From Escherichia coli O157 typing phage 14, in sequence record KP869112: DNA of 64,000 nt; one strand, written 5' to 3'. Of the stretch, positions 1,647 to 10,588 are shown one piece after another (within the stretch, counting starts at the first letter, position 1; each line of letters starts with the position of its first letter). The translations under genes and the position numbers were made by a program. The notes under the pieces are model-generated. The model saw nothing but the letters and a program-made list of their open reading frames with translations, had not been told where the DNA came from and ran no database searches.

Positions 1647-2660
1647 TCAGTGATTACCACCTTTCAGAGTTGCTTTAACAACCAGCTCTGGACGGGTGTT
1701 AACTGCCAGCATGGAAGTTTCAGATTCAATCTTCTCTTCACGCAGGTATGCAGAGTGTTTATACCACATATACAGTTCCTGTGCTGGAGTGTTTGCTTCG
1801 TTAACATCGTCTGCCGGAGCAAAGTGCAGCTGGAACATCTGATCAATACCCATCGGCAGGATGCGAGCCTCTTTCTTAGGAATATTGCCAGAGATATCTT
1901 CGATAAAGGTGATACCTTTATGCTCAAACACACGGTATACGCTGTCTTGACCACCCGCACCCAGACGGCGACGCAGAGGTTCCTGAGCAGAGCCGTAATA
2001 GGTGTATGCCAGTTCTACCAGCGGGTGATGGGTAACAGCACTGAAGAACTCCGGTGAGCACAGGGCTACGATGCGATAGCCAGCTGCGTTATCACCAGCT
2101 TGCAGTGCGATGTGCAGACGAGCTTCTTCCAGAACCTCCATAGGATCCTGATCTGCTTTTGCAGGGTCAATCTCAACAGACTTCTGATCCACACCCCACA
2201 GAGTGTAGTAGTTATACTGGCAGGTAGCGTCACCAGGTGCATAGGATTTACCCAGAATAGCCTGGAACAGCGCTTTCTCACGCAGTGCTTCATGGGAAAC
2301 ACGGATACGGCGAACAACGCGGGTTACTACGTCCTGAACAGTTTTCGGAGCATCAGGAGTGAAGTAACGACGGAAGTTCTGAACATCTGCAGCAGTGATG
2401 CCTTTATCCAGAGGGAAGAACGGGATGTTCAGGTTTTTAACCTGAGCACGTTCATTACCAACGTAGTTACGCTCACCACCACGACGGCGTGCCGGAATGT
2501 CTGTTACAACTTCATCAACACGCTCGATCTGAGCAATTGTTGAGGTGCCGAGACGAGTTTCGAACAGATCCATACCAGTAATCAGGCGGAATTGACGCGG
2601 AACAAGGTCCAGAGTAGCACCTAAATCAACAATGCCAAATTCATCTTTACGAGTAATCAT
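1647..2660 (-). CDS. putative major capsid protein
   Basis: 337-aa ORF at the end of the order terminase-portal-scaffold-like-small head protein; size and position fit an HK97-fold coat protein. Assigned by synteny, not by motif. Confidence 0.55.
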   Translation of the reverse strand: MITRKDEFGIVDLGATLDLVPRQFRLITGMDLFETRLGTSTIAQIERVDEVVTDIPARRRGGERNYVGNERAQVKNLNIPFFPLDKGITAADVQNFRRYFTPDAPKTVQDVVTRVVRRIRVSHEALREKALFQAILGKSYAPGDATCQYNYYTLWGVDQKSVEIDPAKADQDPMEVLEEARLHIALQAGDNAAGYRIVALCSPEFFSAVTHHPLVELAYTYYGSAQEPLRRRLGAGGQDSVYRVFEHKGITFIEDISGNIPKKEARILPMGIDQMFQLHFAPADDVNEANTPAQELYMWYKHSAYLREEKIESETSMLAVNTRPELVVKATLKGGNH

Positions 2661-2708
2661 TTATTTCTCCAAAGTAAAACTTAAATATTTTCCCGAACAA
2701 TTTAGGAC

Positions 2709-3098
2709 TTACTCTTCCCCAAGAGTCTGGACGTGAACTTTGTTACCCAGAGCTTCCAGCTTTTCAAGAACAGCCTGCTTAGCTGCTTCACCGTCAGACC
2801 CCAGCAGCTTATCTTTTGCAAAGGTAACACCATGAACTGCAACAACCAGTTTATATTTCTGACCTGTTTTCAGAGGCTCAGCAAGATGAACTTTTCCTGC
2901 ATCTTTTACCAAAGCTCGGTCTACAAGAACACCATAAACGTCTGAGTCATCATCGTTAGCGATAGTGCCAGTTTTTGTTACAACAGTACCAGCATGATGG
3001 TGCTCTGTCAGTATAATTTCCATCTCTTTAAAATTGTAGCCAGCATCGCTAGAATCAACTTTGCCGAGCACGATATCAGAATATTGAGCGGTAATCAT
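2709..3098 (-). CDS. putative head decoration/accessory protein
   Basis: 129-aa ORF directly upstream of the capsid gene; positional inference only. Confidence 0.35.
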   Translation of the reverse strand: MITAQYSDIVLGKVDSSDAGYNFKEMEIILTEHHHAGTVVTKTGTIANDDDSDVYGVLVDRALVKDAGKVHLAEPLKTGQKYKLVVAVHGVTFAKDKLLGSDGEAAKQAVLEKLEALGNKVHVQTLGEE

Positions 3099-3118
3099 TT
3101 ATTTCCCCCGTTAATGTC

Positions 3119-4096
3119 TTATTTGGTAGATTCTGCACGTGCACGAGCAAGTGCTTTTGCAACGTTTTCAGCAAGAATTTCTTCTGCGGATTTTGCAATA
3201 TCATCCACAACAGGTTCGCCATCATTACCATGTTCAGTGGTGGCAAACTCTTCTTTGGTTTTATGCACCTCTGCTTCCAGCTCTTCAATTTTGGCCTGAG
3301 CTTTCTCCAGCATAGCTACGATAGGTTCGTTAGCTTTTTCCAGCATGAAGTCAACCAGGGTTGCATGATCTTCTTCACCAACAAAGCTTAAAGCTTGAGC
3401 CTTAGTCAGCATTTTAGCTTTTTCAACTTCAATCTGGGCTTTGATGATTTCTTCAGCTTTACTCTGGGTTGCTTTCAGCTCTTCTACTTGCTTCAGCAGA
3501 TCCAGATACTCTTTAGTTTTGGTTACGTCCACCGGATTCTCCTCGGTATTTGCGGATTTTGCAACATCATCCACCTCGGTAGTTTTATCCACCTCAGCAG
3601 GTTCCTGTACCGCCTTGATCAGGTTCCCTTCTTTATCGAAGAGATCAGCGGTTACTTGTTCAAAAATCTGTTGTGTTTTTAACAGGCTGTACTGATCTAC
3701 CACACTAAGCTGCTTGCCTTCTTTTGCAGCCTTATGAATGGTCACGTTATCACAACGCTCTTCCAGCCATGCAATACAAGACTCTGCGTCAGCTTGCGCC
3801 CATTCCCAATCAGGATGCTCTTTAGCCCAAGCCTCCTCTTCAATCTCAAAACCAAGCATGTGTGCAAGTGCTTTAGCATCATCATACCACATACCGAAGA
3901 AACGACGCAGGTATTCTTCAAAACTAAGCTCCACAGTAACTTGGCGAAGTGCCTTAACAATATCGTCTGTTAACTGCTCAGGCTTAAGATCACTCTTCAT
4001 CAAAAGAGATACAGGTCTGTTGTTAGCGCTATAGCCTTGCGCCTTATGGCACAGGGCAATCCCCTTCTCTTTAATAGTAATCGTTTTTTCAGACAT
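3119..4096 (-). CDS. putative scaffolding protein
   Basis: 325 aa, acidic, long Ala/Glu/Lys-rich predicted coiled-coil C-terminal half; lies between portal and capsid genes. Confidence 0.45.
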   Translation of the reverse strand: MSEKTITIKEKGIALCHKAQGYSANNRPVSLLMKSDLKPEQLTDDIVKALRQVTVELSFEEYLRRFFGMWYDDAKALAHMLGFEIEEEAWAKEHPDWEWAQADAESCIAWLEERCDNVTIHKAAKEGKQLSVVDQYSLLKTQQIFEQVTADLFDKEGNLIKAVQEPAEVDKTTEVDDVAKSANTEENPVDVTKTKEYLDLLKQVEELKATQSKAEEIIKAQIEVEKAKMLTKAQALSFVGEEDHATLVDFMLEKANEPIVAMLEKAQAKIEELEAEVHKTKEEFATTEHGNDGEPVVDDIAKSAEEILAENVAKALARARAESTK

Positions 4097-6241: not shown

Positions 6242-7363
6242 TTAGATAAAACGCTTGAACATAGAAGGTGATGAGATTGATGGAATCACACAAGGGAGTG
6301 CTACCTCCTCTTTCTCCAGGAAATTAATCGCAGAAGCTACACAGTCGGCCCAGTCGTCTTTTCTGTTAAATGTTGATCTTTCCCCGTTGAATTTTTCAAG
6401 TTCAGTCAGAAATGCTTCCAGAGTATCAGGATGGAAACTGGATTTTACAATCCTCACCATTCCTTGTTGTGCAAGATTGGCAAAAGGTGAGAACCTTGTC
6501 AGTTTAGATTTGTTGGAAGGCATTGGGTCTTCTTCAACCCTGAACCCTTCGGCGAGCAAGGATCTGGATGAGGTTAAGAACTCACTCTTACCTGCCTGAC
6601 CAGGGTCCACAGAGAATACGATTATGCAATCATCACCATCAAACTGCGCCTGTTTCCTGATGATCACATCTCGTTCACCAGCCTTTTTACAGAACTTGCC
6701 TTCCAGACCTGTGGAATACCTCCCGTCATCCACGTTCTCAGGACAATAATCACCGGACAGGTAATAAAAGCCGTCGCTATCTTTACTTACCTTAATACTG
6801 GCGGTAAAGTCAGGAAATTTATTACCGGAAGTTCTCTCGGTTCCTGCCTTATCCCATGCCCTGCAAGATACTGATCCAAGGGGTACTCTATCGGCATCAC
6901 GAAGGAAAGATCTTTGAAAATAGTTTGCACCCTCAGGCTTTGCAAACCAGTTGCCATGAAGAAGCTGGGCTTTTTCAAGCTCGGGCAGACCTTCAAGAAA
7001 AGCAAGGTATTCTGGGTTGTCTCTTAAGCAGACAGGATTATCGAATATTGTTGCTCCTATAAACGAGAATGACAACGGTCTTGGCTTGATCTCCACACCC
7101 AGCCCGTTAACCGTGGTGTATTTCTCTATCAACTCTTCTTTGGAGTCTCCCCATATAAATTCACCGTCGCGTCGGATAAAATATCTTTTCTTACCGCATT
7201 TCTCCGGATCTGGATACCCTTCATCGTCCAACCACCATCTAACCAGTTTGGCAAGCATGTGTTCTGAATCGGGGTTACAGCTGATAACCATTCTTGATGG
7301 ATACTTTGACTGAGATCGCAGACGAGACATCAGATAGTCTATCTGCTCCCATTCGAACTGTGT
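6242..7363 (-). CDS. terL: terminase large subunit, exon 2 (nuclease domain)
   Basis: Reading frame is open upstream of the annotated ATG back to 7363 (TQFEWEQIDYLMSRLRS...MVISCNPD); joins in frame to exon 1 after removal of intron 7364-8246. Confidence 0.75.
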   Translation of the reverse strand, partial: TQFEWEQIDYLMSRLRSQSKYPSRMVISCNPDSEHMLAKLVRWWLDDEGYPDPEKCGKKRYFIRRDGEFIWGDSKEELIEKYTTVNGLGVEIKPRPLSFSFIGATIFDNPVCLRDNPEYLAFLEGLPELEKAQLLHGNWFAKPEGANYFQRSFLRDADRVPLGSVSCRAWDKAGTERTSGNKFPDFTASIKVSKDSDGFYYLSGDYCPENVDDGRYSTGLEGKFCKKAGERDVIIRKQAQFDGDDCIIVFSVDPGQAGKSEFLTSSRSLLAEGFRVEEDPMPSNKSKLTRFSPFANLAQQGMVRIVKSSFHPDTLEAFLTELEKFNGERSTFNRKDDWADCVASAINFLEKEEVALPCVIPSISSPSMFKRFI

Positions 7364-8246
7364 CGTTTATGTTCGGGCAAGGTCGCTAGTCTTGCCCCGC
7401 CATTTTCAGGCAGCTGCATGTCTCCATGCAGACCAGACTATATCTTATGAATGTGTAAATACTCTGCCGCTCTAAGAATAGTTTCCTCATCTTCTTGGAA
7501 GAAACCTAAAGCTCTGTTGCATTTATCACAAAGCAACCCTCTTACAGCACCAGTTTTATGGTCATGATCAACACAAAAGAAATCTCTGTACCCTTGCGTC
7601 CTATACTCATTAAGAGATATTCTACAAATGGCACACTTATGATCTTGATCTGAGAGTAGACGATAGTATTCATCTTTTGTTATGTGAAATTTCTTCTCAA
7701 TCTGATAAAACTTTTCACACATCTTACACCTGTTCGTAACCAGATATACTTTACCATAGTCACGTTTTGTGTAAAAACTATCAGCGAGCATACTTTCATG
7801 ACAAGATTTGCATTCAAAAAGTTCACCTTTCTTCAGCAAGTCTTGAATAAACAATGCTGCGTCATCTCTCTTAACCATATTTTTGTTTTTACGAGATCCA
7901 CCCTTCCTGTAGTACATATAGCATTCCTTGCATGTGCCTGAGTATCCATCCTTGCTCTCAGATGATAAAAAGAAATCATCAATAGGCAGAACTCTTTGGC
8001 AATCCATACATTTTTTAGTATTACACATTCACCCTCCCGTTTCGAATCGCTTGATTCTACGTCTTTCGACTAGTCGTTGAACGTTCATCCTCTCGGATGC
8101 TTCGCTGCGGATTATCTAAATTAACACACTGTTACCATACCTTCGATCTCTCTTCGAAGCCTCTATTATGTTACCATAACAGGTTGGTGGTGTCAATAAT
8201 AAAGATTTCCCCGCAATTAGGGAGGTTTTACGAGAGCTACAAATTA
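7364..8246 (-). mobile_element. group I self-splicing intron interrupting terL
   Basis: On the minus-strand RNA all four conserved group I elements are present: P AAUUGCGGGGAAA (plus 8206-8218), Q AAUCCGCAGC (8104-8113), R GUUCAACGACUA (8071-8082), S AAGAUAUAGUCU (7435-7446). Exon 1 ends GAGGGU and pairs with intron GCUCUC as a P1 helix with U.G at the splice site; intron ends in G. Confidence 0.8.
7438..8028 (-). CDS. intron-encoded endonuclease VII-family (HNH-type) homing endonuclease
   Basis: 196 aa with CVDHDHKTGAVRGLLCDKCNRALG (the DHDH...RGLLC..CN signature of T4 endonuclease VII-like nucleases) and Cys-rich N-terminus; ORF lies between intron elements R and S and its last codons overlap S. 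Confidence 0.75.
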   Translation of the reverse strand: MCNTKKCMDCQRVLPIDDFFLSSESKDGYSGTCKECYMYYRKGGSRKNKNMVKRDDAALFIQDLLKKGELFECKSCHESMLADSFYTKRDYGKVYLVTNRCKMCEKFYQIEKKFHITKDEYYRLLSDQDHKCAICRISLNEYRTQGYRDFFCVDHDHKTGAVRGLLCDKCNRALGFFQEDEETILRAAEYLHIHKI

Positions 8247-8672
8247 ACCCTCATCGAAGCAAACCATGGTGTACTCAAGCCCCTGATGGTTAAGCTTATC
8301 TTGTACATACTCCATGTGGCAGTATTTTACAACAGCTCCCTTTTTGCTTCTATCCCACTTACCAGTGTTCGGATCAAACCGTGGAAAAATGAACTTATGA
8401 TCCTTCTCTCTGAACTTTGGCTTAATGTTTTCAGGCAGATCACTATAAATAGCTACTGCTTTAGGCCATAGTCCACCCTCACCTTCCAACTGTGGTGTTG
8501 TTCTTCGGAACATAACCACAGAGCTGTGGGGGTCATCAATAATTTTAAGTGGCATCAACTGCAAGAGGAACGACTTGCCAGACCCTGCGGCACCGCCGAT
8601 TACCAAAATATCTGCATCGTTTTCTAGGATCATCTTCTGCTTTTCAGAACACGGTCCGTAAATCTTAGACAT
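8247..8672 (-). CDS. terL: terminase large subunit, exon 1 (ATPase N-terminus)
   Basis: Walker A GGAAGSGKS and Walker B MVCFDEG; the stop codon right after FDEG lies inside the intron. Confidence 0.75.
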
Positions 8673-8959
8673 TAACCTCTCTCCTTTGGAAACAGTGTTC
8701 TAATATAGTCTTGCAAAATGATCAATTTAGCTCTATCATTGCTACAAGACAGATTATTATCCCTCATAATGCCAGAATTCACTGCATCTGGCGCACCTTT
8801 CTTCAAAGGCATAGCTTTAGCAGGTGGTTTCATGGCACCTTCTGGGGGTTTAACAATCAACCTTCCTACATCCGGAGGGTCAATCTTGTATTCTCTCTCA
8901 ACGCTGGTTACACACCCACATAATAACAAGCACACAATAAACAGTGTAGCAACTCTCAT
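8672..8959 (-). CDS. putative o-spanin (Rz1-like outer-membrane lipoprotein)
   Basis: 95 aa; N-terminal signal peptide with LLLCGC lipobox-like motif, then Pro-rich region (KPPEGAMKPPAKAMP); directly follows the i-spanin-like gene. Confidence 0.55.
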   Translation of the reverse strand: MRVATLFIVCLLLCGCVTSVEREYKIDPPDVGRLIVKPPEGAMKPPAKAMPLKKGAPDAVNSGIMRDNNLSCSNDRAKLIILQDYIRTLFPKERG

Positions 8960-9354
8960 CTACCCTCCTGATTAATACTCTCATTATAAATATCTATAAG
9001 CTGATCAGGGAGTGTTGACTTCTTACCTTCAGGGGATTGGAGGTAGATAATCTGCTTTTCTCTACCTGCCCTCTCAGCTATATTTAATTTATCCTGCAGA
9101 TCAGAAAGAGATTTTTCAAGGTTTTTAACCTCCTCTGCGTGGCCCATTTTAATCTTGTCGGCCTGCTTTTGTTGCTGATCAAGGATCCGTTCCCACTTTA
9201 ACTCTGTTACTGACACACCCTCCTGGTAGGCATCATTAAGCTTGGAGTTAAACCAATACACGGCCCCAAGATAAGCTGTACCTATCGCAGCTGCAAAAAC
9301 TAAACCTTTTATGATCCCTTTATACCTACTCAGCCATGTTAAAACTGAAATCAT
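8956..9354 (-). CDS. putative i-spanin (Rz-like)
   Basis: 132 aa; one N-terminal transmembrane helix (GLVFAAAIGTAYLGAVYWF) followed by a charged coiled-coil-like domain. Confidence 0.55.
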   Translation of the reverse strand: MISVLTWLSRYKGIIKGLVFAAAIGTAYLGAVYWFNSKLNDAYQEGVSVTELKWERILDQQQKQADKIKMGHAEEVKNLEKSLSDLQDKLNIAERAGREKQIIYLQSPEGKKSTLPDQLIDIYNESINQEGR

Positions 9355-9775: not shown

Positions 9776-9852
9776 TGGTCTCCACGGAGTGATTCGAACA
9801 CTCGACCTCCTGATCCCAAATCAGGCGCTCTACCAAGCTGAGCTACGCGGAG
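9776..9852 (-). tRNA. tRNA-Pro (anticodon UGG)
   Basis: Hand-folded cloverleaf: 7-bp acceptor stem, T-loop TTCGAAT, anticodon loop UUUGGGA, encoded CCA. Confidence 0.75.
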
Positions 9853-9863
9853 TATTTATTATT

Positions 9864-9938
9864 TGGTGGCCCTGGGTGGAATTGAACCACCGTCTGGCGA
9901 TTATGAGTCGCTTGCTTGAACCTTCCAGCTACAGGGCC
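9864..9938 (-). tRNA. tRNA with CAU anticodon (Met or Ile2)
   Basis: Acceptor GGCCCTG/CAGGGCC, T-arm GGTGG-TTCAATT-CCACC, anticodon arm GCGACUCAUAAUCGC, encoded CCA. The anticodon arm resembles the E. coli ileX type as I recall it, so Ile2 is possible. Confidence 0.7.
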
Positions 9939-9939
9939 A

Positions 9940-10015
9940 TGGTGCTGATGGCAGGACTTGAACCTGCAACCTATTGATTACAAATCAATTGCACTACCAA
10001 TTGTGCTACATCAGC
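9940..10015 (-). tRNA. tRNA-Thr (anticodon UGU)
   Basis: Acceptor GCTGATG/CATCAGC, D-stem GCAC/GTGC, anticodon stem ATTGA/TCAAT with loop UUUGUAA, T-loop TTCAAGT, CCA. Confidence 0.75.
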
Positions 10016-10022
10016 AAAAAGG

Positions 10023-10119
10023 TGCTAGGTGATGGAATCGAACCACCTATGTATTCAACGACTACCTCGTCTATTTTCAGGATTAAAAATCCTCGCCCTT
10101 GCCAAAGGGCTTACCTAGC
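10023..10119 (-). tRNA. atypical tRNA-like gene (Lys-like UUU anticodon loop, 29-nt variable region)
   Basis: Perfect 7-bp acceptor GCTAGGT/ACCTAGC, D-arm GCCC-TTTGGCAA-GGGC, T-arm GGTGG-TTCGATT-CCATC; anticodon arm GAGGA-UUUUUAA-UCCUG (G-G mismatch at 27-43). About 29 nt sit between anticodon and T stems, including an ACGA/TCGT hairpin. No complete encoded CCA. Confidence 0.5.
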
Positions 10120-10216
10120 TCAGTATGTTGACCATGTTGCTAGTCGGCGATGACGACTGTAACATTTGATAATCCGGTTCTGCTTCCGGCTTTCGCTTAA
10201 TTACAAGGTCAACAAT

Positions 10217-10308
10217 ATGGCCGAGGGTAATGGAATCGAACCATCATCAAGTCATCCTCAACGGGACGGTTTTCAAGACCGCTTGAGCACCATTGCTCCC
10301 TACCCTCA
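10217..10308 (-). tRNA. tRNA-Ser (anticodon UGA)
   Basis: Class II tRNA, 92 nt: acceptor TGAGGGT/ACCCTCG, anticodon stem GCGGT/ACCGT with loop CUUGAAA, long variable arm, T-loop TTCGATT, CCA. Confidence 0.7.
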
Positions 10309-10422
10309 TTTATAAACAATACTGATAATGACACTGATTTTCGAGCAGTTAGTGACTAGTATAAACGACGATAAATATCAATGCCATTATCTGTATGATT
10401 TATGCATTTAAAACTATAAATT

Positions 10423-10509
10423 TGGTGGGGAGTGGTGGAGTCGAACCACCCGAGTCGCAATGACAATAGATTTACAGTCTACACCGCTACCTCTACGGGA
10501 TAACTCCCC
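10423..10509 (-). tRNA. tRNA-Tyr (anticodon GUA)
   Basis: Acceptor GGGGAGT/ACTCCCC, anticodon stem GTAGA/TCTAT with loop CUGUAAA, long variable arm (class II, bacterial Tyr type), T-arm GGTGG-TTCGACT-CCACC, CCA. Confidence 0.7.
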
Positions 10510-10513
10510 AATT

Positions 10514-10588
10514 TGGCACCCCGTACTGGACTCGAACCAGTGTCAACGGCTTAGAAGGCCGCTGCTTTATCCACTAAGCTAACAGGGC
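10514..10588 (-). tRNA. tRNA-Arg (anticodon UCU)
   Basis: Acceptor GCCCTGT/ACGGGGT (two G.U pairs), D-stem GCTT/AAGC, anticodon stem GCGGC/GCCGT with loop CUUCUAA, T-arm ACTGG-TTCGAGT-CCAGT, CCA. Confidence 0.7.

Follow-up and report, generated by a model that had tools for sequence, protein, structure and literature searches.

A probable mobile group I intron with a homing endonuclease gene in its P8 loop in the large terminase gene of Escherichia coli O157 typing phage 14

The gene of the large terminase subunit (TerL) of Escherichia coli O157 typing phage 14, an rV5-like Vequintavirus, was analysed in a stretch of 64,000 nucleotides of sequence record KP869112, hereafter the window; the coordinates of the TerL locus are given in window numbering and refer throughout to the minus strand. 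We assign a probability of about 0.93 to the reading that the Walker B coding region of this gene is interrupted by a mobile, self-splicing group I intron of an IA-like type, which carries a homing endonuclease gene in the loop of its P8 helix. In near-identical phages, the TerL intron is already annotated and has been mentioned in publications, and it would work in the way usual for phage introns of group I that encode a homing endonuclease.

Exon 1 of TerL spans 8672..8247 (142 codons) and encodes the Walker A (GGAAGSGKS) and Walker B (MVCFDE) motifs. In the list of open reading frames (ORFs) it corresponds to the ORF 8672..8244 of 142 amino acids, which ends with ...MVCFDEG, the last codon being GGU, and is closed at once by TAA, as a first reading of the letters without database searches (the sequence-only reading) had noticed. 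This UAA is made of bases 1-3 of the intron, which starts in frame with exon 1, occupies 8246..7364 (883 nt) and ends with the omega-G at 7364. Exon 2 (7363..6242, 373 codons and a stop) reads TQFEWEQIDYLMSRLRS from 7363 and contains the rest of the ATPase domain followed by the RNaseH-like nuclease domain. Upstream, its frame is closed by a TAA at 7369-7367, at a distance of one codon from the proposed 3' splice site, and the exon 2 ORF can therefore start no earlier than 7366. The sequence-only reading had placed the resumption of the gene 883 nt downstream and in frame: the distance and the position hold, but not the frame, since 883 equals 3x294+1 and the two exons thus lie in different genomic frames, which are joined only upon removal of the intron. 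Both ORFs match, in Pfam, the same 215-position profile Terminase_6N, at positions 2-104 for exon 1 and 111-211 for exon 2, the latter match being followed by Terminase_6C. They are therefore the halves of a single ATPase domain, and the split falls two residues past the Walker B Asp-Glu.

The boundaries were set independently by an intron-less allele. When the TerL gene of phage AlexBoehm was aligned with the window, exactly the 883 nt at 8246..7364 were missing from it, and the placement of this insertion is unambiguous, since the bases flanking the gap differ. The translation of exon 1 is identical to the N-terminus of the intron-less TerL, and the predicted spliced protein is identical to the uninterrupted AlexBoehm protein at 458 of 458 positions, which are all the residues available; the joining of exons predicted by the sequence-only reading agrees with this alignment. 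After splicing, Terminase_6N gives one contiguous match of 72.2 bits at residues 25-294 (profile positions 2-211 of 215), versus 25.6 and 31.7 bits for the separate halves, and Terminase_6C is matched at residues 394-489, so that the product has the contiguous ATPase and RNaseH-like nuclease domains of a T4-type large terminase. From this identity and this single Terminase_6N match, the host gene is intact once the intron is removed, as is the case for group I introns. An intein, a programmed frameshift and a read-through were also considered and rejected: the frame of exon 1 stops at once, the insert has a length of 3n+1, and the ORF that it contains has its own frame and start.

The intervening RNA has the fold of a group I ribozyme. 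A scan of the whole window against Rfam at the gathering threshold returned tRNAs only. With an E-value threshold, the group I model RF00028 matched 8256..7414 over its full length (model positions 1-253) with 47.8 bits and an E-value of 7.9e-11, and this match in TerL is the sole group I match across the 64 kb. In the alignment, the window copy has an insertion of approximately 560 nt in the P8 loop. Orthologous introns without ORF, located at the same site in rV5 and JohannBauhin, score 84.9 and 84.3 bits, respectively, with the same model (cut-off 50). The P, Q, R and S elements announced by the sequence-only reading align to the RF00028 consensus as AAUUGCGGGGAAA, AAUCCGCAGC, GUUCAACGACUA and AAGAUAUAGUC, and together with them the core pairings P3 to P8, including the P3/P7 pseudoknot, are found.

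P1 is formed by 8252-8245 with 8239-8232 in the Rfam alignment, the exon bases GAGGGU (8252-8247) and the intron bases UA (8246-8245) pairing with UAGCUCUC, and all eight of its pairs are standard in 10 alleles. The wobble pair U8247.G8237 in this helix is the 5' splice site pair and G7364 is the terminal base of the intron; both had been proposed from the letters and both coincide exactly with the boundaries given by the intron-less allele. The bases UGU at 8241-8239 could pair with ACA of exon 2 (7363-7361) as a P10 of 3 bp, to judge from their complementarity. The P2 positions of the model are deleted in the RF00028 alignment, and just GUAAAA stands between P1 and P3. The P3 helix is made of CCUCCC (8225-8220) and GGGAGG (8038-8033). 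P4 (8215-8210 with 8111-8106) and P5 (8206-8203 with 8117-8114) follow the Rfam alignment, and P5 is extended by P5a (8197-8190 with 8127-8120), P5b (8182-8176 with 8169-8163) and P5c (8159-8154 with 8146-8141); P5 with its extension covers 8206-8114 and the whole P4-P5 region, P5a, P5b and P5c included, covers 8106..8215. The P6/P6a hairpin (8105-8081) is closed by the GNRA loop GAGA, which is GAAA in three alleles. In P7, GACUA (8075-8071), aligned by Rfam as part of the R element, pairs with UAGUC (7440-7436), which is part of the S element AAGAUAUAGUC. Between P7 and the P3 3' strand, an insertion of 29 nt (8070-8044) forms two hairpins, P7.1 (8070-8061, GUC-GAAA-GAC) and P7.2 (8057-8044, GAAUC-AAGC-GAUUC), and these hairpins point to subgroup IA. 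Since the lack of P2 is atypical for IA2, the intron is called here IA-like and not a typical IA2 member. P8 is formed by GAAUGUGUAA (8030-8021) and UUACACAUUC (7458-7449). At the 3' end, P9 (7431-7414, GAGA loop) is followed by P9.1 (7411-7399) and P9.2 (7397-7375), and all three lie in a block (from the S element to P9.2, approximately 7445..7367) that is 83.5% identical over 79 nt to the T-even td introns (E 3e-13); the td likeness of the 3' region, pointed out in the sequence-only reading, is thus found by alignment.

The fold was compared among ten intron-bearing alleles, which were aligned after the ORF loop had been cut out of four of them. The 91 proposed pairs are standard in 99.7% of cases, a figure that falls to 32-39% if the partners are shifted by 1-3 columns. 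The independent evidence in this analysis consists of the compensatory changes only, six pairs being changed on both sides (two in P5a, one in P5b and three in P8). In P5a of HMD-6, a U-A pair is replaced by C-G and an A-U pair by G-C, and one P5b pair is U-A, U.G or C-G in different alleles. The P8 stems differ wholly between the introns without ORF (AAGCG/CGCUU) and those with it (GAAUG.../...CAUUC), each of them pairing with itself at the same place. The pairs of P7.1 and P7.2 are invariant among the alleles and are supported by the fold only, and in the P6a loop the variation is limited to GAGA and GAAA.

Several points weigh against the interpretation as a self-splicing intron. The covariance search, which the sequence-only reading had suggested as a check, gave a full-length match, but the window copy lies 2.2 bits below the Rfam gathering score of 50 bits and is formally sub-threshold; this shortfall is explained by the penalty for the P8 insertion, since orthologues without ORF that are nearly identical outside P8 score well above the cut-off. 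The high percentage of paired positions is partly circular, since the structure was derived from the same sequences, and most core helices are invariant and uninformative either way, the alleles being 95-99% identical. In addition, our literature searches found no RNA or protein data and no splicing or cleavage experiment for the window intron, and no direct splicing data for TerL introns of Vequintavirus. This last point leaves room for the view that the insertion does not splice, TerL being a split gene whose two polypeptides, of 142 amino acids and of approximately 362 amino acids starting at M7330, reassemble. Split genes of this kind occur in phages, as in Aeromonas phage Aeh1, in which NrdA is split by mobE. 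Moreover, an intron-associated HNH that did not splice was reported in phage CB7 (PMC7344957), and exon 2 of the window has an in-frame ATG 11 codons past the junction. This ATG at 7330, however, has no clear Shine-Dalgarno sequence upstream, and a restart there would lose 11 residues that are kept unchanged in the intron-less TerL. A break two residues past the Walker B Asp-Glu, within one Pfam domain, is also difficult to reconcile with two separate polypeptides, as are the complete group I fold found by the covariance model, with its compensatory changes, and the location of the U.G pair and of the omega-G exactly at the boundaries drawn from intron-less alleles. We consider therefore a split TerL gene without splicing very unlikely.

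The ORF within the intron (8028..7438) encodes a protein of 196 amino acids, as stated in the sequence-only reading, which had placed it in the P8-P9 region; the alignment shows that it fills the terminal loop of P8. Its C-terminal half is a catalytic domain of the endonuclease VII/DHHRN type: residues 110-192 match PF02945 (Endonuclease_7) with 76.7 bits (cut-off 23.6) and an E-value of 1.3e-21, in agreement with the family named from the letters, and the motif CAIC / DHDH / RGLLC / CDKCN, with all zinc and catalytic residues, is present in the translation. In a sequence comparison with solved structures, residues 57-192 match the restriction enzyme Hpy99I (3fc3) with an E-value of 1.1e-5; this match and that to T4 endonuclease VII (1e7d, E 1.3e-4) are the best ones. 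The N-terminal half contains two CxxC...CxxC modules. No significant Pfam match was obtained for the N-terminal 115 amino acids, the best being DUF7836 (E 0.067), with zinc-ribbon or LIM-type profiles at E > 0.8; the two CxxC...CxxC patterns and the alignment with Hpy99I suggest putative zinc-binding modules for DNA recognition.

The ORF is embedded in the helices of the ribozyme. It starts with an AUG (8028-8026) located in the 5' strand of P8, and GGAGG (8037-8033), in the 3' strand of P3, is its predicted Shine-Dalgarno sequence on account of sequence and spacing. At its other end, the last codons make up the 3' strand of P8, which encodes the C-terminal L-H-I, and the UAG stop (7440-7438) falls within the 3' strand of P7. 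With the putative Shine-Dalgarno sequence in P3 and the AUG in P8, the folding of the ribozyme and the translation of the ORF should compete. An internal promoter upstream of the ORF was considered: a sigma-70-type match of 10/12 was seen (8196->8168, minus strand), and it is not claimed as a promoter, since such sites are no commoner in the intron region than in shuffled sequence (10 vs 6.8 +/- 2.7).

The locus is 98-99% identical to that of rV5-like phages such as JES2013, APECc02, inoa and HeinrichReichert, and it also matches "Campylobacter phage" records that GenBank taxonomy places in Vequintavirus. In the phage collection, TerL is uninterrupted at the insertion point in 66 records and contains the intron with ORF in 29 records; the intron without ORF accounts for approximately 23 records, a number obtained by subtracting these 29 from the 52 with at least 80% of the intron. 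Three allele states, i.e. no intron, intron without ORF and intron with ORF, therefore coexist among genomes that are 95-99% identical. The P8 hairpin is replaced as a whole between the two forms of the intron, with 582 nt in the window (8021-8030/7449-7458) versus 18 nt in rV5 (1142-1159 of its locus, L002). Since each form has its own self-complementary P8, the endonuclease gene seems to move together with a 10-bp inverted repeat, which takes the role of P8. As a separate observation, the "Campylobacter phage" records MG065644-MG065682 (A12a, C15, A116 and others) are the closest ones (98.8%) and are near-identical to E. coli rV5-like phages; their host label looks doubtful, and one record that was inspected is marked UNVERIFIED.

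The exon base at -1 (window 8247), which is the U of the U.G pair, is T in 11 of 11 sampled intron-bearing alleles. The 45-mer covering the exon junction of the window (GGT|ACA) has an exact match in none of the 66 intron-less records, and the junction GGC|ACG, with C at -1 (as in AlexBoehm and FV3), is matched exactly in at least 51 of them; to judge from the identities, as many as 2 records may be of a mixed state at -1 and +3. A linkage of both T at -1 and A at +3 (window 7361) to the intron was considered and rejected: at +3, intron-bearing alleles have either A or G (Aya, ECP26, JEP1), and only -1 is therefore linked to the intron. The C at -1 in intron-less alleles may have several causes: (i) co-conversion of the exon base with the intron; (ii) a requirement of splicing; and (iii) resistance to the endonuclease.

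The distribution of the three states bears also on a second alternative, in which the ribozyme splices and the nuclease encoded by the ORF is dead or domesticated and has ceased to promote homing, so that only vertical descent would maintain the intron. The version without ORF in approximately 23 records indicates that loss or absence of the ORF is tolerated, and in phage Gotham (MT682716) the locus is 1 nt shorter and the endonuclease matches only from residue 6, so that the gene may be frameshifted there. On the other side, the ORF is intact in 28 of the 29 records; the copies of the endonuclease are at least 96.9% identical in the 29 records and always inside the same intron, and the next-best match beyond them, in a Listeria phage, is 40.6% identical. 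All five copies sampled are intact, the zinc-ligand and catalytic residues are all kept, and synonymous codon differences outnumber non-synonymous ones: the 15 versus 6 differences between the window and Aya fit purifying selection on the gene. Among genomes that are 95-99% identical, the intron is distributed patchily, which agrees better with recent mobility than with descent alone. A decaying element is consequently, in our opinion, extremely unlikely, and the reading of a mobile intron with an active endonuclease is preferred.

The fold, the boundaries, the restored protein, the family of the nuclease and the three natural allele states are shown by the sequences; splicing in vivo, the target and the activity of the endonuclease, and translational coupling are inferred, in the following way. 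A single pre-mRNA would be produced by late transcription, and ribosomes translating exon 1 would halt at the UAA of intron bases 1-3, so that the folding of the ribozyme would not be hindered. A guanosine, free and bound in P7, would then attack past U8247 at the U.G pair of P1, and the 3'-OH of exon 1 would attack past the omega-G 7364, so that ...GAU GAG GGU would be joined to ACA CAG UUC; the product would be a TerL of 515 amino acids reading ...MVCFDEGTQFEWEQ... Translation of the endonuclease would require intron RNA with P3 and P8 unpaired, since its Shine-Dalgarno sequence and AUG lie within those helices. In mixed infections, it would cut intron-less TerL alleles near the insertion site, and through repair off the intron-bearing genome the recipient would acquire the intron together with the exon base next to it.

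Introns have already been described in TerL of these phages. Kropinski et al. (2013) reported "Introns in terminase" of rV5, with three exons and a homing endonuclease in one intron, and thanked David Shub for defining where the intron lies (PMC3606486); in the GenBank record of rV5 (DQ832317, ORF64ABC), TerL is joined from three pieces. Intron 1 of rV5 has the same insertion site as the window intron, and P1 to P7.2 and P9 to P9.2 differ by few substitutions, but it is ORF-less and 319 nt long, its P8 being a short hairpin AAGCGAUUGUUGUCGCUU where the window has 582 nt of P8 and ORF; JohannBauhin likewise has the ORF-less intron (319 nt) at this site. The same intron and endonuclease gene as in the window are found in JES-2013, APECc02 and the BASEL phages HeinrichReichert, DrSchubert, MaxBurger and WalterGehring, with 97.8-98.4% identity of the DNA of the locus, 98-99.5% identity of the protein, and point substitutions only. 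BASEL records, among them GenBank MZ501073, show TerL joined from two pieces, with a "putative homing endonuclease" nested between them, the coordinates of the join not being displayed; according to the BASEL paper, comparative genomics served to set the boundaries of introns (PMC8594841).

The endonuclease belongs to a family that has also been described. The DHHRN family of homing endonucleases was defined around its founding member F-CphI by Fang et al. (2018), in whose list of this family a protein with the Endo VII motif from "Escherichia phage 2 JES-2013" is given as intron-encoded (PMC6083498); that protein is 99.0% identical to the window endonuclease. F-CphI, of cyanophage S-PM2, shares with the latter the C-terminal Endo VII catalytic motif (CxxC, DHDH, R, CxxC-N), and a homologue of F-CphI beside psbA in cyanophage S-RSM88 is matched by the window endonuclease in tblastn with an E-value of 1e-8, the identity being approximately 30% and confined to the C-terminal two-thirds. 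F-CphI differs in that it is free-standing, adjoins an intron and has a tested activity, whereas the window endonuclease is internal to its intron and known from sequence.

The window intron shares its core elements and P7.1/P7.2 with the T4 td, nrdB and nrdD introns (IA2), and its central core is approximately 70% identical to that of nrdB introns. The T4 introns have also an in-frame stop shortly past the 5' splice site; they differ from the window intron in their host genes, in the P2 helix, which is not aligned in the window, and in the location of the ORF, which is in L8 in the window. I-TevI, of the GIY-YIG family, is located in the P6 loop of td.

A related situation exists in TerL of the Pectobacterium phage CB7 (Certrevirus, Vequintavirinae, KY514263), whose intron was shown to splice by reverse transcription PCR (PMC7344957). 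This intron, of group I, interrupts the Walker B region of the orthologous gene (381-1350 of its locus, L006), contains a nuclease ORF and matches RF00028 with 35.2 bits and an E-value of 4.8e-7. Its insertion site lies 6 nt upstream of that of the window (FIGVD|EGTQF versus FDEG|TQF), i.e. past the Walker B Asp and not past Asp-Glu-Gly, and its ORF, an HNH of the rV5 ORF65 type, stands further 5' in the fold. It is a different intron from that of the window, and two unrelated introns, 6 nt apart, therefore target the same few TerL codons within one phage subfamily. The population pattern, together with this second intron 6 nt away, could mark an active arms race at the Walker B codons, in which C at -1 would keep an incoming intron from splicing productively and/or protect from the endonuclease. 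In addition, with the Shine-Dalgarno sequence in P3 and the AUG in P8, translation of the endonuclease and folding of the ribozyme could exclude each other, and this could be a timing switch; we advance all this only as a rather doubtful conjecture.

A second TerL intron of approximately 980 nt with an HNH ORF (rV5 ORF65) is present in rV5, HdK5 and several other relatives, and the window is without it. It is located at approximately 1564-2545 of the rV5 locus (L002, DQ832317) and 2130-3120 of the HdK5 locus (L003), between ...ACCAU and AUUCGAU; the equivalent site in the window is within exon 2, at codons ...GATI|FDNP. No Rfam match at the gathering threshold was obtained for this second intron, presumably due to its ORF.

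The TerL locus opens no new question, and its main practical value concerns annotation. In many GenBank records, the locus still appears as two "terminase" fragments plus a "recombination endonuclease VII" or even a "Holliday junction resolvase", which can be replaced by one spliced TerL and an intron-encoded homing endonuclease. A locus with all three allele states is also a convenient natural system for measuring homing by the DHHRN family. TerL exon 1 is misannotated as "putative recombinase endonuclease" in ECP26 (MK883717) and as "hypothetical protein" in HdK5 (MK373780).

Directly upstream of TerL on the minus strand, an o-spanin (8672-8959, lipoprotein-like, MRVATLFIVCLLLCGC...) and an i-spanin (8956-9354) are encoded, their names being taken from the BASEL records, and the start codon of TerL is overlapped by the stop of the o-spanin. 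This lysis/terminase block is preceded, just upstream, by at least six clustered tRNA genes at 9779-10588 of the window on the minus strand. Two tRNA-like sequences in the cluster are long and score low (10023-10119 and 10428-10507), and a tRNA-Sec-like match below the threshold was seen at 10223-10307.

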